DNA from: an uncultured Bacteroidales bacterium
Lineage (GTDB): Bacteria > Bacteroidota > Bacteroidia > Bacteroidales > Paludibacteraceae
NCBI GenBank assembly: GCA_934692905.1
Contig: CAKUUM010000001.1
Location: 27,997-91,996, forward strand
DNA: 64,000 nt
Direction of reading: 5' to 3'
In this document: positions 41,831 through 49,524 of the stretch, piece after piece
Position numbering within the stretch: position 1 is the stretch's first letter
How the letters are laid out: each line of letters opens with the position of its first letter
Translations under genes and position numbers: made by a program
Notes under the pieces: generated by a model
The model's input: only the letters and a program-made list of their open reading frames with translations
Databases searched by the model: none
What the model was told of the DNA's origin: nothing

Positions 41831-42337
41831 ATGAGTACGTTTATTGGCAATATCGAAGCGCGGTTGGATGAGAAAGGGCGCATATTCATCCCCGCAGGGT
41901 ACAGGAAGATACTGGGCGAGATGGAGTCGCGCCGTATCATCATGCGCCGAGATACAGACAATGAGTGTATCATCTTCTACCCCGAACAAGTGTGGAACGA
42001 GAAAGTGGGGCAACTGCGCCATGCCCTGAACGAGTGGGACCCTGACGACCAGATGATACTGATGCAGTTCATCGCCGAAGCAGAGATACTGGAACCCGAC
42101 AGCCAAGGCCGCGTACTGCTCCAGAAAAAGAACGTGGAGATGATAGGTGCCCAACAAGACGTGCTGTTCGTGGGCATGTTGGACCGCTTCGCATTGTGGA
42201 GTCCGAGTGTCTTCCGCGAAAAGCAAATGCCGCAGAAAGATTTGGCAGAGCGTATAAGACAGAGAATGAAGGGGGGTACACCCTACAACCAAGGCTTCAT
42301 TAAAGACCGCACAAAAGAAGTGGAGGGACTCCGTTAA
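41831..42337 (+). CDS. mraZ: Transcriptional regulator MraZ
   Basis: MSTFIGNIEARLDEKGRIFIPAGYRK and a second SpoVT/AbrB-like half (DSQGRVLLQKK). It is the first gene of the dcw cluster. Confidence 0.9.
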   Translation: MSTFIGNIEARLDEKGRIFIPAGYRKILGEMESRRIIMRRDTDNECIIFYPEQVWNEKVGQLRHALNEWDPDDQMILMQFIAEAEILEPDSQGRVLLQKKNVEMIGAQQDVLFVGMLDRFALWSPSVFREKQMPQKDLAERIRQRMKGGTPYNQGFIKDRTKEVEGLR

Positions 42338-42445
42338 TTGCCGTTAATTGACCGTTAATGCAGGCAAGAAGATTGGGAAGAACTCCATTAATGACCATTA
42401 AAAAGAGAAAGAACATATAATTGTCGTGTAATTAACCATTAATTT
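42331..42445 (+). repeat. AT-rich repeat block: 3 x ccgttaattg tandem (overlapping the mraZ stop) plus a 63-bp 'ccattaat / taattaaccattaat' element
   Basis: ccgttaattg ccgttaattg accgttaatg ... aactccattaatgaccattaaaaagagaaagaacatataattgtcgtgtaattaaccattaattt. Compare 6321..6383. Confidence 0.8.
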
Positions 42446-42466
42446 CTCAAAGCAAAGAACTTGAAT

Positions 42467-43492
42467 ATGAGTGAGGTGTACCACATACCGGCAATGCTGG
42501 AGGAGACGATAAACGGACTGGATATCAAGCCCGAGGGGACGTATGTGGATGTCACCTTCGGCGGAGGAGGTCACTCACGTGCTATCATGAGCAGGCTCGG
42601 GGATACAGGAAGGCTGTTCTCGTTTGACCAAGACATGGACGCATATATAAATGAGAAGACCCCCTCCAACTCCCCCTTCAAAGGGGGAGAGTGCAGATGC
42701 TCGGAATACCCCTCCTTGAAAGAGGGGTCAGGGGAGGTCCATCGGTTGTCTGAAGACAAGCGATGGCAGTTTGTGCATGGTAATTTCCGTTACCTGAGGA
42801 ATTTCATGGACTATTACGGGGTAACGGAGATAGACGGGCTACTGGCTGACTTGGGTGTGAGTTTCCATCACTTCGACGAGGCAGAACGCGGCTTCTCGTT
42901 CCGGTTTGCCGGTCCGCTGGATATGCGCATGAATCGGGAAGGCGGGCGCACCGCAGCCGACATCGTAAACACCTACTCCGAGGAAGACCTGACACGCGTA
43001 TTCCGTATCTACGGCGAGATGAGCAACGCCAAAGCCGTGGCACAGCGGATAGTCAGGCAAAGGGAAAACGCACCCATTCTCCGCACCGAACAATTGGTAG
43101 AATGTGTCATGCGCAATGTGCAATGCGCAATGTGCGATGGTCTTATCGAGGTGCCGACATGGGCAAAGAAAGACTTGGCAAGAATGTTCCAAGCGTTGCG
43201 CATAGAGGTGAACGACGAATTGGGTGCGCTACGAGAGATGCTGCTGGCAGCACGCGAGTTGCTTCGTCCGGGCGGACGGATAGCCATACTGACCTATCAC
43301 TCGTTGGAAGACAGGATTGTGAAAAACTTTCTGCGTTCCGGTAACTTGGACGGCACCATCGAAAAGGATTTCTACGGCAACATACTGACACCCTTCCGAG
43401 TAATAGAAAAAGGGGCTACGGCAAGTGAAAAGGAAGTGGAGCGCAATCCGAGAGCAAGGAGCGCGAAACTGCGGGTGGCGGAGAAACTATAA
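42467..43492 (+). CDS. rsmH: 16S rRNA (cytosine1402-N4)-methyltransferase, carrying two low-complexity inserts
   Basis: MSEVYHIPAMLEETI, GGGGHS, DGLLADLGVS and FQALRIEVNDEL motifs. The ATG at 42467 is preferred over the TTG at 42461. Confidence 0.9.
   Translation: MSEVYHIPAMLEETINGLDIKPEGTYVDVTFGGGGHSRAIMSRLGDTGRLFSFDQDMDAYINEKTPSNSPFKGGECRCSEYPSLKEGSGEVHRLSEDKRWQFVHGNFRYLRNFMDYYGVTEIDGLLADLGVSFHHFDEAERGFSFRFAGPLDMRMNREGGRTAADIVNTYSEEDLTRVFRIYGEMSNAKAVAQRIVRQRENAPILRTEQLVECVMRNVQCAMCDGLIEVPTWAKKDLARMFQALRIEVNDELGALREMLLAARELLRPGGRIAILTYHSLEDRIVKNFLRSGNLDGTIEKDFYGNILTPFRVIEKGATASEKEVERNPRARSAKLRVAEKL
42658..42740. repeat. Inverted pair of short-form GC-rich hairpin elements inside rsmH coding sequence (in-frame)
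   Basis: gaccccctccaactcccccttcaaagggggag ... gaatacccctccttgaaagaggggtcaggggaggtcc. These encode about residues 64-92 (TPSNSPFKGGECRCSEYPSLKEGSGEV). Confidence 0.8.
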
Positions 43493-43553
43493 AGGAATAA
43501 AGAGTAAGGAATAAGGAATAAAGACGAATAACATGAATTAGTAAGGTGTTGCG

Positions 43554-43865
43554 ATGAGACAGGGCAGCATAAAGGAAATACTTAGCGGAGATGTGCTGAA
43601 GCGGGGCTGGTTTCGCAGGCAGTACAAACTGATACTGCTGATATGCGGACTGATATTCGTGTATATCTATGCGGGATACCAAGCCCAACGGCAGCAGAGA
43701 CACTTGGGCGACCTGCAGAAAGAACTGCAAGATGTGCAGTTCGAGCAACTGACGGTCAATGCGCAGTTGGTGGAAGTGACACGGCAATCGGCTGTGGCAG
43801 AGGAACTGAAGAAAAGGGGAAGCAAAGTGAAAGAGAGCGATGTACCCGCGGTGCGGGTGCAATGA
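43554..43865 (+). CDS. ftsL: FtsL-like cell-division protein (single TM + coiled coil)
   Basis: 103 aa, TM segment YKLILLICGLIFVYIYAGY, then a coiled-coil region. It sits between rsmH and ftsI. Confidence 0.75.
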   Translation: MRQGSIKEILSGDVLKRGWFRRQYKLILLICGLIFVYIYAGYQAQRQQRHLGDLQKELQDVQFEQLTVNAQLVEVTRQSAVAEELKKRGSKVKESDVPAVRVQ

Positions 43866-43935
43866 GAGAGATTAGAGGTTAGAGATTAGAGTTTAGAGAA
43901 GTTGAAAGAAGAAAGTAGAGAGTAAAGAGAAAGAT

Positions 43936-45747: not shown

Positions 45748-45818
45748 CTCCCCCTACCCCCTCAAGAGCACCCCACTTCGCCCTGCGGGGCTCGTAGGGA
45801 CCCCGCTACAGAGGGGGA
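45747..45818 (+). repeat. GC-rich hairpin element, long form (reference copy), between ftsI and murE
   Basis: actccccctaccccctcaagagcaccccacttcgccctgcggggctcgtagggaccccgctacagaggggga, homologous along its full length to the reverse complement of 14244..14315. Confidence 0.8.
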
Positions 45819-45856: not shown

Positions 45857-47389
45857 ATGAAACTAAGTGAGTTGCTGAAAGGTGTGGAGGTGCTGCAAAC
45901 CGTGGGCAGTACGGATGTGGAGATACAGAGTATCCAGTTCGATTCGCGACGCGTGGATGAGGGCGATGTGTTCGTAGCCCAACGCGGCACCAGCGTGGAC
46001 GGACATACGTTTATCGCACAATGTATCAACCAAGGGGCAGTAGCCATAGTCTTGGAAGACAAGAACTATATCCGACTCCCCCAACCCCCTCAGGGAGGGG
46101 GCTCAACAAAGCAGGCACCTGATGTTACCTATATATTAGTAAAGAACAGCGATGAAGCCCTTGGCAGAATGGCACACACATGGTACGGGGAGCCGAGCAA
46201 GCACCTGCGGTTGGTGGGTGTGACAGGCACCAACGGCAAGACCACCACCGCCACCCTGCTCTACCGTCTGACAAAAGCCATGGGACACAAGGCAGGACTG
46301 CTCTCGACGGTCGTCAATTACGTGGACGACGAAGCCGTAGAGGCTACGCACACCACGCCCGACGCGTTGGAACTCAACGGGTTGCTGCACCGCATGGTAG
46401 CGGCAGGGTGCGAGTACGCCTTCATGGAGGTCAGCAGCCACGCCATCGCGCAGGAGCGCATCGCGGGCTTGGAGTTCGCGGGGGCGTTGTTCACCAACCT
46501 CACACGCGACCACCTCGACTACCACAAGACCTTCGACAACTACCGCGACACGAAGAAGAGGCTATTTGACGGGCTTCGCAAAGAGGCATTTGCCGTTACG
46601 AACCTGGATGACAAGAACGGGCTGGTGATGACGCAAAACTGTCGGGGTCACGTCTTCACGTATTCGACACGCGGCATGGCGGACTTCCGCGGGAAGATAC
46701 TTGAGGAAGGGTTCGACGGTATGCTGCTCCGCATACAGAGTACACAAGGGGCAGTGGACACCGAGGTATTCGTGCCGCTGGTGGGGCGTTTCAATGTGAG
46801 CAACCTGCTGCTGATATACGGTGCGGCTGTGGAACTCGGTTTCGACCCCATGGAGGTGCTGCGCATATTGAGTGGGCTGCACCCCGTGAACGGACGCTTC
46901 GAGACCATACACGCCCCGCAGGGCTGGACGGCGATTATTGACTACGCCCACACGCCCGATGCGGTGGAGAATGTGCTCCGTACCATCAACGAGATAATAT
47001 CGTCCACGGCGGGCAAGCGCAAAGAGCCCGCACAGGTGATTACGGTGGTCGGCTGCGGCGGCAACAGGGATAAGGGCAAGCGTCCGATGATGGCACGAAT
47101 TGCTTACGACCGGAGTACGCAACTGATACTGACCTCCGACAACCCCCGCGACGAGGAGCCCGCAGCCATTCTGCAAGACATGGCGGCAGGTCTGACGGAG
47201 GACGAACTGCGGCACGTGCTGATTATCGAAGACCGTGCGTCCGCCATCAAGACCGCCTGCACCATTGCACGCGACGGCGATGTGATACTCGTTGCCGGCA
47301 AGGGGCATGAGGACTACCAGATAATCAAAGGGGTGAAGCACCATTTCGACGACCATGAGGTGGTGAGAGGGTGCTTGATTGTTAAGTAA
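45857..47389 (+). CDS. murE: UDP-N-acetylmuramoyl-L-alanyl-D-glutamate--2,6-diaminopimelate ligase
   Basis: GVTGTNGKTTTA P-loop and the DNPR motif (TSDNPRDEEP) typical of MurE. Confidence 0.95.
   Translation: MKLSELLKGVEVLQTVGSTDVEIQSIQFDSRRVDEGDVFVAQRGTSVDGHTFIAQCINQGAVAIVLEDKNYIRLPQPPQGGGSTKQAPDVTYILVKNSDEALGRMAHTWYGEPSKHLRLVGVTGTNGKTTTATLLYRLTKAMGHKAGLLSTVVNYVDDEAVEATHTTPDALELNGLLHRMVAAGCEYAFMEVSSHAIAQERIAGLEFAGALFTNLTRDHLDYHKTFDNYRDTKKRLFDGLRKEAFAVTNLDDKNGLVMTQNCRGHVFTYSTRGMADFRGKILEEGFDGMLLRIQSTQGAVDTEVFVPLVGRFNVSNLLLIYGAAVELGFDPMEVLRILSGLHPVNGRFETIHAPQGWTAIIDYAHTPDAVENVLRTINEIISSTAGKRKEPAQVITVVGCGGNRDKGKRPMMARIAYDRSTQLILTSDNPRDEEPAAILQDMAAGLTEDELRHVLIIEDRASAIKTACTIARDGDVILVAGKGHEDYQIIKGVKHHFDDHEVVRGCLIVK
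46074..46101 (+). repeat. Short-form GC-rich hairpin element inside murE coding sequence (in-frame)
   Basis: gactcccccaaccccctcagggagggggc. It encodes about residues 73-82 (RLPQPPQGGG). Confidence 0.75.
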
Positions 47390-47534: not shown

Positions 47535-48806
47535 ATGTTGTACGAATTATTCAACCATTTCAGCACCATTCCGGGAGCGCGACTGATGACGTATATTTCG
47601 TTCCGCGCCATCATAGCGGGCGTGTTGGCATTGTGTATCAGTATCTGGATGGGCAACTGGTTCATCAACCTGCTGCGCCGCAAGCACATCTCCGAGACGC
47701 AGCGCGACGAGAAGACCGACCCCTTCAACGTCAACAAGAAAGGCGTGCCCACCATGGGTGGAGTGGTGATAATCGCGGCGATGCTGGTTCCGTGCCTGCT
47801 TATGGGCAAGTTGACCAACGTCTATATGCTGCTTATGCTGCTGACTACCATACTGTTAGGAGCACTCGGCTTTGCGGACGACTACATCAAGACTTTCCGT
47901 CACAACAAGGACGGCTTGAACGGTTGGATCAAAATCGCAGGGCAAGTCACCCTTGGTCTTATCGTCGGGCTCACGCTCCGTTACTGCCCCGACGCGGTGA
48001 TGAACGAGGTCGTAACCTCCCGCATCGAGAACAACATCGAGGTGGTGGAGAAGTCCCCCGACGTCAAGTCCACCCGCACCACCATTCCCTTTGTGAAAGC
48101 GCACAACTGCAACTATGCCGACATGTTCTCGTGGCTCGGCGAGACCAACAAATACAAAGCCGGCTGGGTCTTCTTCGTGCTGCTGACGGTGCTTGTAGTG
48201 GCAGCCGTGAGCAACGGAGCCAACCTCAACGACGGTATGGACGGTATGTGTGCGGGCAACTCGGCGATTATCGGAGCGGCACTTATCGTACTGGCGTATA
48301 TCAGTGGCAATGTGGTGTTTGCGGACTATTTCGATGTGATGTACATCCCTGGCAGCGAGGAACTGGTAGTGTTCCTTGCGGCATTCGTAGGCGCGCTGAT
48401 AGGTTTCCTCTGGTGGAACGGTTTCCCTGCGCAAATCTTCATGGGCGACACGGGCAGCCTCACGATAGGCGGCATCATAGGTGTGTGTGCCGTGATTATC
48501 CACAAGGAGTTGCTTTTGCCTATCCTTTGCGGTGTGTTCCTGATGGAGAGCGTGAGTGTCATACTGCAGACGCAGGTGTATAAGTTCGCCAAACGGCGCG
48601 GCAAGCACATCCGTGTATGGAAGCGCACGCCGCTGCACGACCACTTCCGCACATCCATGGAGCAGGTCTTGCGCAACGACCCCACATGCTCCGTCTATTT
48701 CAAAGGGCACGGCAACCTGCAGCACGAGACCAAGATAGTACTCCGTTTCTGCATCGTCACCCTCCTATTGGCAGCCCTGACTATCCTCACACTCAAAATA
48801 CGATAA
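47535..48806 (+). CDS. mraY: Phospho-N-acetylmuramoyl-pentapeptide transferase
   Basis: Polytopic membrane protein with PTMGG, NGANLNDGMDG and the FMGDTGSL motif. Confidence 0.95.
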   Translation: MLYELFNHFSTIPGARLMTYISFRAIIAGVLALCISIWMGNWFINLLRRKHISETQRDEKTDPFNVNKKGVPTMGGVVIIAAMLVPCLLMGKLTNVYMLLMLLTTILLGALGFADDYIKTFRHNKDGLNGWIKIAGQVTLGLIVGLTLRYCPDAVMNEVVTSRIENNIEVVEKSPDVKSTRTTIPFVKAHNCNYADMFSWLGETNKYKAGWVFFVLLTVLVVAAVSNGANLNDGMDGMCAGNSAIIGAALIVLAYISGNVVFADYFDVMYIPGSEELVVFLAAFVGALIGFLWWNGFPAQIFMGDTGSLTIGGIIGVCAVIIHKELLLPILCGVFLMESVSVILQTQVYKFAKRRGKHIRVWKRTPLHDHFRTSMEQVLRNDPTCSVYFKGHGNLQHETKIVLRFCIVTLLLAALTILTLKIR

Positions 48807-48839
48807 ACATATAATTATCGTGTAATTAACCATTAATTT
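48806..48839 (+). repeat. 'taattaaccattaat' element, forward copy immediately 5' of the GxxExxY gene
   Basis: aacatataattatcgtgtaattaaccattaattt. It matches the reverse complement of the 44-bp units at 49338..49513 (about 30 of 33 positions for unit 3). Confidence 0.8.
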
Positions 48840-48840
48840 C

Positions 48841-49350
48841 ATGGATATGGAACAGGACGCGGGACGGCAGCACTACAAGCAGGTGATATATGATATCATC
48901 GGTGCGGCAATGGAGGTGCACAGGACATTGGGTTGGGGATTGCTGGAACCTGTATATCAAGAGGCATTGTACTTGGAACTGCAAAGCAAAGGTATTGATT
49001 GTCAGAGGGAACAAGAGATAGAAATAAGGTACAAGCAATACGTATTGGATAAGAAATACAGGGCGGACTTGATAGTGGGCGATGTAATAGTGGAGTTGAA
49101 GTCTGTGTGGCAGATACTGGGCGAACATCGTGCGCAGTTGTGTAATTATCTGCGGCTTACCAAGAAACCTTACGGAGTATTGATTAACTTCGGGGAGCGG
49201 AGTCTGGCAGGAGAGCGGTGGCAATACGACCCGCTGACAAATGAGTGCACGTTGATAAACAAGAACATGGAGCCGGTTATATCGGACGATTACCGGTTTG
49301 AGCGGTACGATATACAGACAAACAAGACTAAGGAAGAAATTAATGAATAA
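48841..49350 (+). CDS. GxxExxY family protein (PD-(D/E)XK nuclease-like fold), inserted in the dcw cluster
   Basis: GWGLLEPVYQEALYLEL contains the GxxExxY signature. RADLIVGDVIVELK fits a D...E.K nuclease-type motif. 169 aa. Confidence 0.8.
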   Translation: MDMEQDAGRQHYKQVIYDIIGAAMEVHRTLGWGLLEPVYQEALYLELQSKGIDCQREQEIEIRYKQYVLDKKYRADLIVGDVIVELKSVWQILGEHRAQLCNYLRLTKKPYGVLINFGERSLAGERWQYDPLTNECTLINKNMEPVISDDYRFERYDIQTNKTKEEINE

Positions 49351-49513
49351 TTATACGGATAATTATATGTTCTAATGATAAAATTAATGATTAATTATAT
49401 GGGCAATTACATGTTCCCATAATGGAATTAATGGTTAATTATACGGGTAATTATATGTTCTTATAATGAAATCAATGAACAATCACATGGGTAATTACAT
49501 GTTCCCATAACAA
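49338..49513 (-). repeat. 4 x 44-bp tandem repeat of the 'taattaaccattaat' element (inverted orientation) between the GxxExxY gene and murD
   Basis: Units start at 49338, 49382, 49426 and 49470, an exact 44-bp period. Example: aattaatggttaattatacgggtaattatatgttcttataatga. The first unit overlaps the last codons of the GxxExxY ORF. Confidence 0.85.
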
Positions 49514-49524
49514 TGTATATGTAT

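Follow-up and report, generated by a model that had tools for sequence, protein, structure and literature searches.

An inverted pair of hairpin units read in frame inside rsmH of a Paludibacteraceae bacterium, and the repeat family to which it belongs

How does the gene of a conserved methyltransferase come to hold, within its reading frame, two facing copies of a DNA hairpin, and do they serve the enzyme? The question is raised by rsmH, encoding the 16S rRNA m4C1402 methyltransferase, in a stretch of 64,000 nt from an uncultured Bacteroidales bacterium of the Paludibacteraceae (assembly GCA_934692905.1, contig CAKUUM010000001.1, positions 27,997 to 91,996), which we refer to in full as the window. 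An 82-nt element that begins with GACC and ends with GGTC lies in frame inside this gene at window positions 42658-42739. An earlier note, made from the letters of the stretch, had drawn attention to it; the layout given there holds, while the end was placed at 42740, one base too far. We consider it probable that the segment is a non-autonomous palindromic mobile element, a miniature doublet lacking a gene, which inserted in frame and is tolerated there, and it probably has no function for RsmH.

The element and the protein loop it encodes

Identification of the host gene is based on its open reading frame (ORF), on the PF01795 (Methyltransf_5) domain recorded for an identical RsmH product, and on matches to the solved structures 1WG8 (T. 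thermophilus) and 3TKA (E. coli), both with E ~ 1e-58. The gene stands in the order mraZ-rsmH-ftsL-ftsI-murE-mraY, and the nearest named relatives of its product are found in Paludibacteraceae metagenome-assembled genomes from gut and rumen. An assembly artefact as the source of the insert was ruled out by the identical RsmH protein on 10 independent metagenome contigs and by the presence of the same (forward) allele in many members of its protein cluster. The host gene and the parts of the element are as follows.

42467..43492, + strand: rsmH, the host gene (ORF, PF01795 and structure matches)
42658..42739, + strand: whole element, most likely a core-less doublet; encodes K64 (third base only) and T65-V91; same junctions in loci L004-L007, L084 and L208
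42658..42689, + strand: left unit (left terminal repeat), GA + C-box CCCCCTCC + AA + hairpin CTCCCCCTT-CA-AAGGGGGAG
42690..42707, + strand: spacer AGTGCAGATGCTCGGAAT, 18 nt, in the place where larger doublets hold a variable core
42708..42739, - strand: right unit, inverted (right terminal repeat), hairpin ACCCCTCCTT-G-AAAGAGGGGT + CA + G-box GGGGAGG + TC

Read from left to right, the element consists of GACCCCCTCCAACTCCCCCTTCAAAGGGGGAG (left unit), AGTGCAGATGCTCGGAAT (spacer) and ACCCCTCCTTGAAAGAGGGGTCAGGGGAGGTC (right unit). In the left unit the C-box (42660-42667) is followed by a 9-bp hairpin with arms CTCCCCCTT and AAGGGGGAG (42670-42689) that are 100% complementary. The right unit opens with a 10-bp hairpin, ACCCCTCCTT/AAAGAGGGGT (42708-42728), with one mismatch (90% complementary), and continues to the G-box (42731-42737); a silent G-to-A change in the window breaks one base pair of this right-hand hairpin. 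When reverse-complemented, the right unit can be aligned with the left one and with further copies of the unit, which measures about 31 nt (29-32 nt across copies). For the exact hairpin patterns, 0 matches are expected in shuffled sequences.

As RNA, the 101-nt region comprising the element folds at -40.2 kcal/mol, and composition-matched shuffles average -36. The fold of the mRNA strand is no better than that of these shuffles (z = -1.05), and the opposite strand reaches z = -2.1; folds of the element as DNA give z ~ -2, and the inverted allele described below gives z = -3.4 against shuffles. The region is thus structured, yet runs of C and G would by themselves account for most of its stability. 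An extended mRNA hairpin of about 80 nt, as formerly proposed for this segment, is not what the prediction returns: the fold is a three-way T shape in which an 8-bp, bulged outer stem of C-box and G-box carries two local hairpins. No Rfam family was matched by the whole window at the gathering threshold around this position or by 42400-43000 judged by E-value, apart from chance matches at microRNA level. In the terminator and promoter scan of 42300-43600 the sense strand was empty, without a U-tract terminator, and the total was no higher than in shuffles. Hairpin changes among relatives (in L006, and the silent G-to-A of the window) were not compensatory, the distinct sequences being too few for a formal covariation test.

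On the protein level the element supplies residues T65-V91, TPSNSPFKGGECRCSEYPSLKEGSGEV. Alignments with orthologues and with structures place the insert between FDQD and RWQFVH, just where the earlier note had put it, and its estimate of about 29 extra residues is borne out as well. Both 1WG8 and 3TKA align to query residues 4-62/63 and 93/102-340, with nothing opposite 64-92, and at the point where the query skips from 63 to 93, the E. coli chain passes directly from residue 98 to 99, which makes a 29-residue insertion. These residues are likewise missing from many Paludibacteraceae RsmH proteins. Conservation of the segment at the protein level in distant RsmH orthologues, the observation that had been named as able to overturn the proposal, was not seen in the alignment.

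In an AlphaFold2 (AF2) model of RsmH built with 45 homologues and confident as a whole (mean predicted local distance difference test score, pLDDT, 82.5; predicted template modelling score, pTM, 0.83), residues 68-90 have pLDDT < 50. The insert is positioned between a helix (57-64) that follows the FDQD strand and a strand (100-104) carrying WQFVH. In the model it forms a disordered stretch at the surface, flanked on either side by a conserved element, and it is rich in Pro, Ser, Gly and Glu.

Copies of the unit, doublets and DUF559 cassettes

Our scan, defined by a C-box followed by a perfect C-rich hairpin, detected 5 units in the window and 0-1 in each of 20 shuffles. Their consensus is GACTCCCCCtaaCCCCCTCagaGAGGGGG. 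All 5 short units of the window are intragenic, in rsmH, murE, ribF and an ORF which, from reading its sequence, we take to be lpxB-like. Copies other than those in rsmH, together with two longer forms, are located as follows.

46073..46101, + strand: solo unit in murE, in frame, RLPQPPQGGGS, within a 13-aa insert that most orthologues lack
16274..16302, + strand (gene on - strand): solo unit in ribF, in frame, SSPLSEGVRGS, within an insert of ~47 aa absent from T. maritima RibF
63746..63774, + strand (gene on - strand): solo unit in the presumed lpxB-like ORF, in frame, SPSLRGAGGAP
45748..45818, + strand: intergenic long-form unit in the ftsI-murE spacer, C-box + hairpin CCCCCTC...GAGGGGG, with ~45 nt in the loop
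14244..14317, - strand: second intergenic long-form unit, with ~45 nt inside the hairpin loop

The intact ribF unit is adjoined by a decayed second one, GACTCCCAATAACCCCACTCGAAAAGGAAAGG at 16235-16270, and the two explain much of the ~47-aa insert, which lies in the riboflavin kinase part of RibF. The loop insert of the long form is conserved (AAGAGCACCCCnCTTCGCCC...GGGGACCCCGC; 45765-45811 in the window and 16498-16545 in L208), is found in both orientations and could itself be a nested element.

Beyond the window, the surroundings of rsmH in 80 related genomes, 1.5 Mb altogether, contained 69 units, several of them elsewhere in rsmH. A metagenome scan for one subfamily, GACCTCCCC..CCCCTCC..GGAGGGG, found at least 120 loci with at least 138 units, originating from gut, rumen, lake, sludge and soil. 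Among the matches listed, 40 of 138 units (~29%) are located well within ORFs of 200 aa or longer. These 40 use all six reading frames, from which it follows that the repeat exists as DNA sequence and not as a protein motif. Units are also found in intergenic DNA and in unrelated genes, on both strands. Two frames dominate among the 40, reading TSPxPSxGGE and SPPLEGLGEV; they are those used by the rsmH doublet, and the counts are phylogenetically non-independent. The consensus is nearly invariant across habitats, and all named hosts among those found belong to Bacteroidota.

Convergent pairs of units, 65-311 nt long and enclosing unrelated cores, recur in 2.4 Mb of loci, and several short doublets are translated inside other proteins. 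In the mraY-murD spacer of L007, a 195-nt doublet with a 125-nt core has both end types of the rsmH element, and its complementarity extends into the region equivalent to the rsmH spacer. In the sister strain represented by L208, the left end of a 230-nt intergenic doublet is identical to the rsmH left unit at 31 of 32 positions, while its right end carries the same ~45-nt loop insert as the unit at 45748..45818. Because the same paired ends recur around other cores, the rsmH element is read as one core-less doublet and not as two insertions. "Double foot" repetitive extragenic palindromes (REPs) have been explained by deletion of the central part of a dimer (PMC6006769), and by the same logic a core-less doublet is most likely what rsmH contains. 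The description of the element as one forward and one inverted copy therefore remains correct, with the addition that the copies are most likely terminal inverted repeats of one doublet and not separate insertions. A further variant, 303 nt long, was noted in L197 (4930-5232), where the core is a 33-nt unit repeated in tandem about 7 times (CTGTAGGAGGGGGATTGAATGCAAAGGATGTCT).

Wider unit pairs enclose ORFs, and these encode DUF559 (PF04480) proteins. In all loci together there are 15 DUF559 genes, nearly all with a unit within ~200 nt, and the usual layout is a unit on the + strand, the gene, and a unit on the - strand, that is, a convergent pair. The metagenome loci had been chosen for containing a unit; L061 and L065 were picked through rsmH, irrespective of repeats. 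For five DUF559 homologues picked irrespective of repeats, four genomic contexts were recovered (rsmH-DUF559-ftsL, thrA-DUF559-apgM, kdgK-DUF559-eda and korA-DUF559-korB); adjacent units were present in 4/4 and convergent pairs in 3/4. In L061, the solo unit inside rsmH is identical at 27 of 32 positions to the end of the DUF559 cassette in the same genome. A cassette composed of doublet, DUF559 gene and unit is inserted in frame inside a Type ISP restriction-modification enzyme in L112 (10373-10910) and L199 (714-1198); it splits PF18135, the C-terminal domain, and the flanking doublet is oppositely oriented in the two orthologues. The DUF559-unit association is strong; regarding its causal direction and mechanism, we infer the scheme presented in the last section. 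Among the PD-(D/E)XK nucleases, DUF559 falls into the Vsr clade, of which a homing endonuclease is also a member (PMC3424549).

Some arrangements around these genes can be added. In another Paludibacteraceae lineage (L211-L213, 1371-1960), a DUF559 gene located between rsmH and ftsL is preceded by three tandem units, of which the first overlaps rsmH at its 3' end, and is followed by one inverted unit. The mraY-murD spacer holds a unit-DUF559-unit cassette in L061 and is polymorphic within the species of the window: L208 (16340-16575, 97% identical) has the 230-nt doublet there, and the window (48806-49523) has a small gene, 48841..49350, presumably of the GxxExxY type (PD-(D/E)XK-like) as judged by reading its sequence. 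An AT-rich 34-nt repeat occurs in the mraZ-rsmH spacer (42411-42444, - strand) and again directly upstream of this small gene (48805-48838, - strand). The gene is followed by a tandem array, 44 nt x3.8, of the AT-rich repeat unit in the opposite orientation (49336-49504, + strand). Such a layout, with a small nuclease gene between inverted repeats, parallels that of DUF559 with hairpin units.

States and orientation alleles of the rsmH site

The segment between the conserved motifs, SFDQD...W.FVH.NF, varies from 25 to 69 aa among relatives, with 56 aa in the window and 25 aa in many Paludibacteraceae, and different lineages hold different repeat-derived inserts in it. In the closest clade, rsmH is 89-95% identical in nucleotides outside variable loops. 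Comparison of relatives for presence or absence of the copies, as the earlier note had suggested, disclosed several states, among them no insert, one unit, doublet and inverted doublet. The forward element is present in the window and in L004-L007, the inverted one in L084 and L208, one unit in L008-L010 and a decayed unit in L011. Heptamer-repeat inserts occupy the site in L086 (a GAATKAA array) and in the protein P0017. The single unit of L008-L011, whose RsmH is 72-75% identical, has the same orientation as the rsmH element and lies within 3 nt of its position. L086 and L087 also show short likenesses to the spacer of the element, which are ambiguous and were not relied upon.

In L084 the 82-nt element is inverted at identical junctions (gagca/GACC...GGTC/cgtcag). 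Compared with the element of the window, it matches at 71/83 positions in the inverted alignment and at 58/84 in the direct one, against a self-complementarity baseline of 56/84. The forward allele is translated as EKTPSNSPFKGGECRCSEYPSLKEGSGEVH and the inverted one as ERTSPTPSFKEGSSIISAHSPLKGEPEGVQ, the latter in P0121 (18 contigs) and P0151 (34 contigs). Both alleles fall within the window's own species-level (90%-identity) protein cluster, where P0154 (inverted) and P0002 (forward) have 0 amino-acid differences outside variable loops. Over 6.4 kb, L208, which bears the inverted allele, and the window share 97.1% identity, and the rsmH of L208 downstream of the element is near-identical up to the junction. 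A second lineage likewise has both alleles, and in-silico flipping left the frame open in 4/4 elements tested. An assembly error behind the inversion was ruled out, since the alleles have substitutions of their own and each recurs on many independent contigs.

After the inverted allele is flipped, it is ~83% identical to the forward one, while the flanks are 97-100% identical. Differences affect 3/50 positions in boxes and stems versus 11/32 in linkers, loops and spacer (Fisher p = 0.0017); the spacer is the least conserved part between alleles, with differences at 7/21 spacer positions. The inverted alleles of L208 and L084 differ by eye at 2/82 positions, and forward alleles match at 77/82. 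The limited identity after flipping, and the closer similarity of each type to the same type elsewhere, indicate old, diverged and stable alleles and not a fast switch. The exact RsmH proteins expected from in-silico flipping of the window and L084 elements were absent among 15 billion sequences. The alleles come from an ancient inversion of the whole element or from two ancient insertions, and are now common to lineages, with their flanks homogenised by recombination.

Two independent events could also have formed the doublet itself, if a second, inverted unit landed 18 nt downstream of an ancestral single unit and the alleles represent two insertions into a hot-spot. The single units of L008-L011 would fit such an origin, as would a loop repeatedly hit by different repeats and alleles diverged enough to be different copies of the family. 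We nevertheless find this history rather unlikely, because doublets built with this pair of end types are also found in other places, because the spacer of the inverted allele is inverted along with the units, and because junctions and the length of 82 nt are identical in both alleles.

Another explanation takes the segment for a programmed intragenic inverton, flipped by a site-specific recombinase so that RsmH alternates between two loop isoforms in a population. Bacteroides provides documented cases of recoding intragenic invertons (PMC10028968), and at the rsmH site, too, both orientations share identical junctions within one 90%-identity cluster, with near-identical surroundings in L208 and frames that stay open after flipping. 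A switch of this kind is nonetheless improbable: alleles of the same species are not exact reverse complements of each other, each allele type is closer to its counterpart in the other lineage than to its flipped partner, the exact flipped proteins were not found, and a crossover would need to fall in the outermost 4 nt.

The first ~100 nt of rsmH (42467-42570) are visibly more diverged between the forward-allele strain and the inverted-allele strain (L208) than the ~750 nt downstream. This divergence at the 5' end may be linked to the old inversion polymorphism, or may mark a recombination breakpoint.

A second variable loop of rsmH is filled in the window by heptamers, and similar arrays accompany the gene cluster.

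43101..43139, + strand: second variable loop of rsmH, heptamer array AATGTGC x5.6; in L004-L007 a hairpin unit stands there instead

Further heptanucleotide tandem arrays, AAGGAAT and AGAGATT, are located in spacers of the division and cell wall (dcw) cluster (43492-43521 and 43867-43929). Relatives (L008, L086, L015 and L057) have other heptamer arrays, AATGCAC, GAATKAA and GGGAATC, in the same loops of RsmH and in MurE. Heptamer arrays encode peptides with a period of 7 aa, for example NAQCTMH, NEELRMK and GNRESGI, and a change in copy number would lead to a frameshift unless it came in threes. The window also contains a small SRP (signal recognition particle) RNA of Bacteroidales type, recognised in the Rfam scan.

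Origin of the element and comparison with known systems

A functional structure in mRNA or DNA of the dcw operon, such as a translational pause, an element for RNase processing or stability, or a site bound by a protein of nucleoid or gyrase type, which has been proposed for REPs, would offer an explanation in terms of the host. It is in agreement with the far better conservation of stems and boxes than of spacer and linkers, with hairpins that are perfect in most relatives, with the near-invariance of the unit consensus across habitats and with the z value of the inverted allele as DNA. We judge it unlikely all the same, considering that the mRNA strand hardly departs from shuffles, that neither an Rfam family nor a sense-strand promoter or U-tract terminator was detected, that close lineages have unrelated heptamer repeats instead and more distant relatives nothing at the site, that the silent G-to-A of the window breaks a pair in the right-hand hairpin, and that the unit occurs in unrelated genes in either orientation. 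An adaptive new loop of RsmH, for instance one in contact with the ribosome or a partner, is very unlikely, for although the insert is retained in frame across lineages at ~90-97% nucleotide identity and intragenic units prefer two particular frames, the loop has pLDDT < 50, its alleles within a species are unrelated in sequence, and other related lineages and solved homologues do without it.

According to the explanation that we prefer, a tolerated insertion of a non-autonomous palindromic element, the doublet would be transcribed and translated as a disordered loop in a surface region of the methyltransferase fold. It persists because it is harmless at this spot: its length keeps the frame, no stops occur in the used frame in either orientation, and the loop is outside the conserved core. 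The unit family presumably is or was mobile, and the DUF559 (Vsr/PD-(D/E)XK-like) endonuclease bracketed by units may provide a mobilising or homing function, of which the rsmH copy would be a non-autonomous derivative. The pairing of DUF559 with units would then resemble the relationships between REPs, or REP doublets forming hairpins (REPINs), and REP-associated tyrosine transposases (RAYTs), or between MITEs (miniature inverted-repeat transposable elements) and insertion sequences (ISs), with a different enzyme. Hairpins probably make the site fragile, which could lead to its rapid turnover.

Several observations weigh against this explanation. No transposition event, target-site duplication or empty donor site has been demonstrated; a duplication cannot be called, as the flanks merely extend the palindrome (AAGACC...GGTCTT), and a 2-bp CA duplication at the rsmH site is a conjecture. 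No DUF559 gene is present in the window or in the 21-kb loci of the sister strain, and in BLAST comparisons gene-less doublet cores and DUF559 cassettes share only their ends. To our knowledge, DUF559 has no transposase activity. Choosing loci by their units inflates some of the DUF559 co-occurrence, although this does not apply to L061, L065 and the four contexts recovered irrespective of repeats. A crude six-frame motif search (regular expression) for an HUH...Y ORF gave 0 matches in ~2.5 Mb of loci, in which a single-copy gene is rarely sampled, and a single-copy RAYT may exist elsewhere in the genome. Finally, the 29-mer is strongly conserved across habitats, which could be due to a function for the host rather than to selfish spread.

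A more elaborate scenario, which we put forward tentatively as one possibility, would make the units the ends of undescribed selfish cassettes of Bacteroidota that use a DUF559 endonuclease and not a transposase, and that spread to tight operon spacers and, while keeping the frame, to loops of proteins. In the rsmH doublet such cassettes would be reduced to a minimal, non-autonomous form. The alleles of the doublet would have arisen through inversion of the whole palindrome at the base of the T-hairpin, in a flip/flop manner like that of parvovirus terminal repeats, with the inversion then suppressing recombination and persisting as a polymorphism across lineages.

Among described systems, a functional parallel is offered by Rickettsia palindromic elements (RPEs), selfish palindromes found in frame in housekeeping genes (Ogata et al. 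2000, in the summaries given by PMC10969869 and PMC3733652). Here, too, a palindromic repeat family is inserted in frame in unrelated genes (rsmH, murE, ribF, lpxB-like) and translated as surface segments, and the rsmH insert occupies a loop position compatible with the fold, with its low pLDDT and its place in the gap between aligned structure blocks. RPE hosts are obligate intracellular Alphaproteobacteria, whereas ours are free-living or gut Bacteroidota, and RPEs measure ~100-150 bp as opposed to units of 29-32 nt and a doublet of 82 nt. By published descriptions, CGTC-type RPEs have stems of 8-9 bp started by A/T, and a CCA tail (PMC3733652); the units studied here, with a C-box and C/G stems starting with GAC, do not fit these descriptions. 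An association with DUF559 is unreported for RPEs.

Similarity to REP/REPIN-RAYT systems is seen in short (20-40 nt) imperfect palindromes and in inverted doublets that fold into larger hairpins (PMC3116915, PMC3733652, PMC6006769), in a variable spacer less conserved than the ends, and in a small gene flanked by convergent units. Published REP dimers can also encode 20-30 aa inside genes without breaking the frame (PMC3733652). Unlike REPs, units of the present family have no GT[AG]G or CGTC tag, begin with GAC(C/T) and form doublets ending with GGTC. The gene they flank encodes a DUF559 Vsr-like nuclease, and an HUH/Y1 transposase was missing from the crudely scanned 2.5 Mb. Furthermore, REPs are mostly extragenic, whereas copies here are predominantly intragenic (5/5 short units in the window).

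With MITEs the element shares terminal inverted repeats, small size, lack of coding capacity, heterogeneous cores, polymorphism for presence or absence and, in some cases, fusion in frame (PMC10969869). It differs in that no IS with a recognised transposase has the same ends, and forms that carry a gene encode DUF559. Recoding intragenic invertons of Bacteroides (PMC10028968) likewise combine intragenic inverted repeats, both orientations in nature and an ORF open in both, but in rsmH the alleles are old and diverged across lineages, and the whole element is inverted, including its asymmetric ends. Homing endonucleases of the Vsr fold (I-Bth0305I; clade 58 VSR/DUF559/DUF2726, PMC3424549) belong to the same PD-(D/E)XK clade as DUF559. 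Like them, DUF559 genes appear as small, selfish-looking inserts in tight operons, even in frame in a host gene; in contrast to them, DUF559 genes are situated outside introns and inteins, are flanked by hairpin repeats and are not known to have an activity. No description of the unit, its peptides, the link between DUF559 and repeats, or this family (also approached through REPIN/RAYT in Bacteroidetes) was found in the searchable literature, the coverage of which is incomplete. The general kind of element is known, while this family, its apparent partnership with DUF559 and an inverted allele pair in a gene of an essential operon appear to be new.

Colonisation of essential genes by in-frame palindromes, best known in Rickettsia, is thus common in an abundant uncultured lineage of gut and rumen Bacteroidales. 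For DUF559, a very common "endonuclease domain-containing protein", the association provides a testable hypothesis, namely that it is the enzyme partner of a hairpin-repeat family. In practice, unit inserts enlarge protein clusters and break them up, and they can lead annotation and strain typing astray. The rsmH loop represents a natural experiment in which close lineages have radically different alleles, including a translatable inverted pair in one species, and these alleles bear on the origin of new protein segments and on the destabilisation of coding DNA by palindromes.

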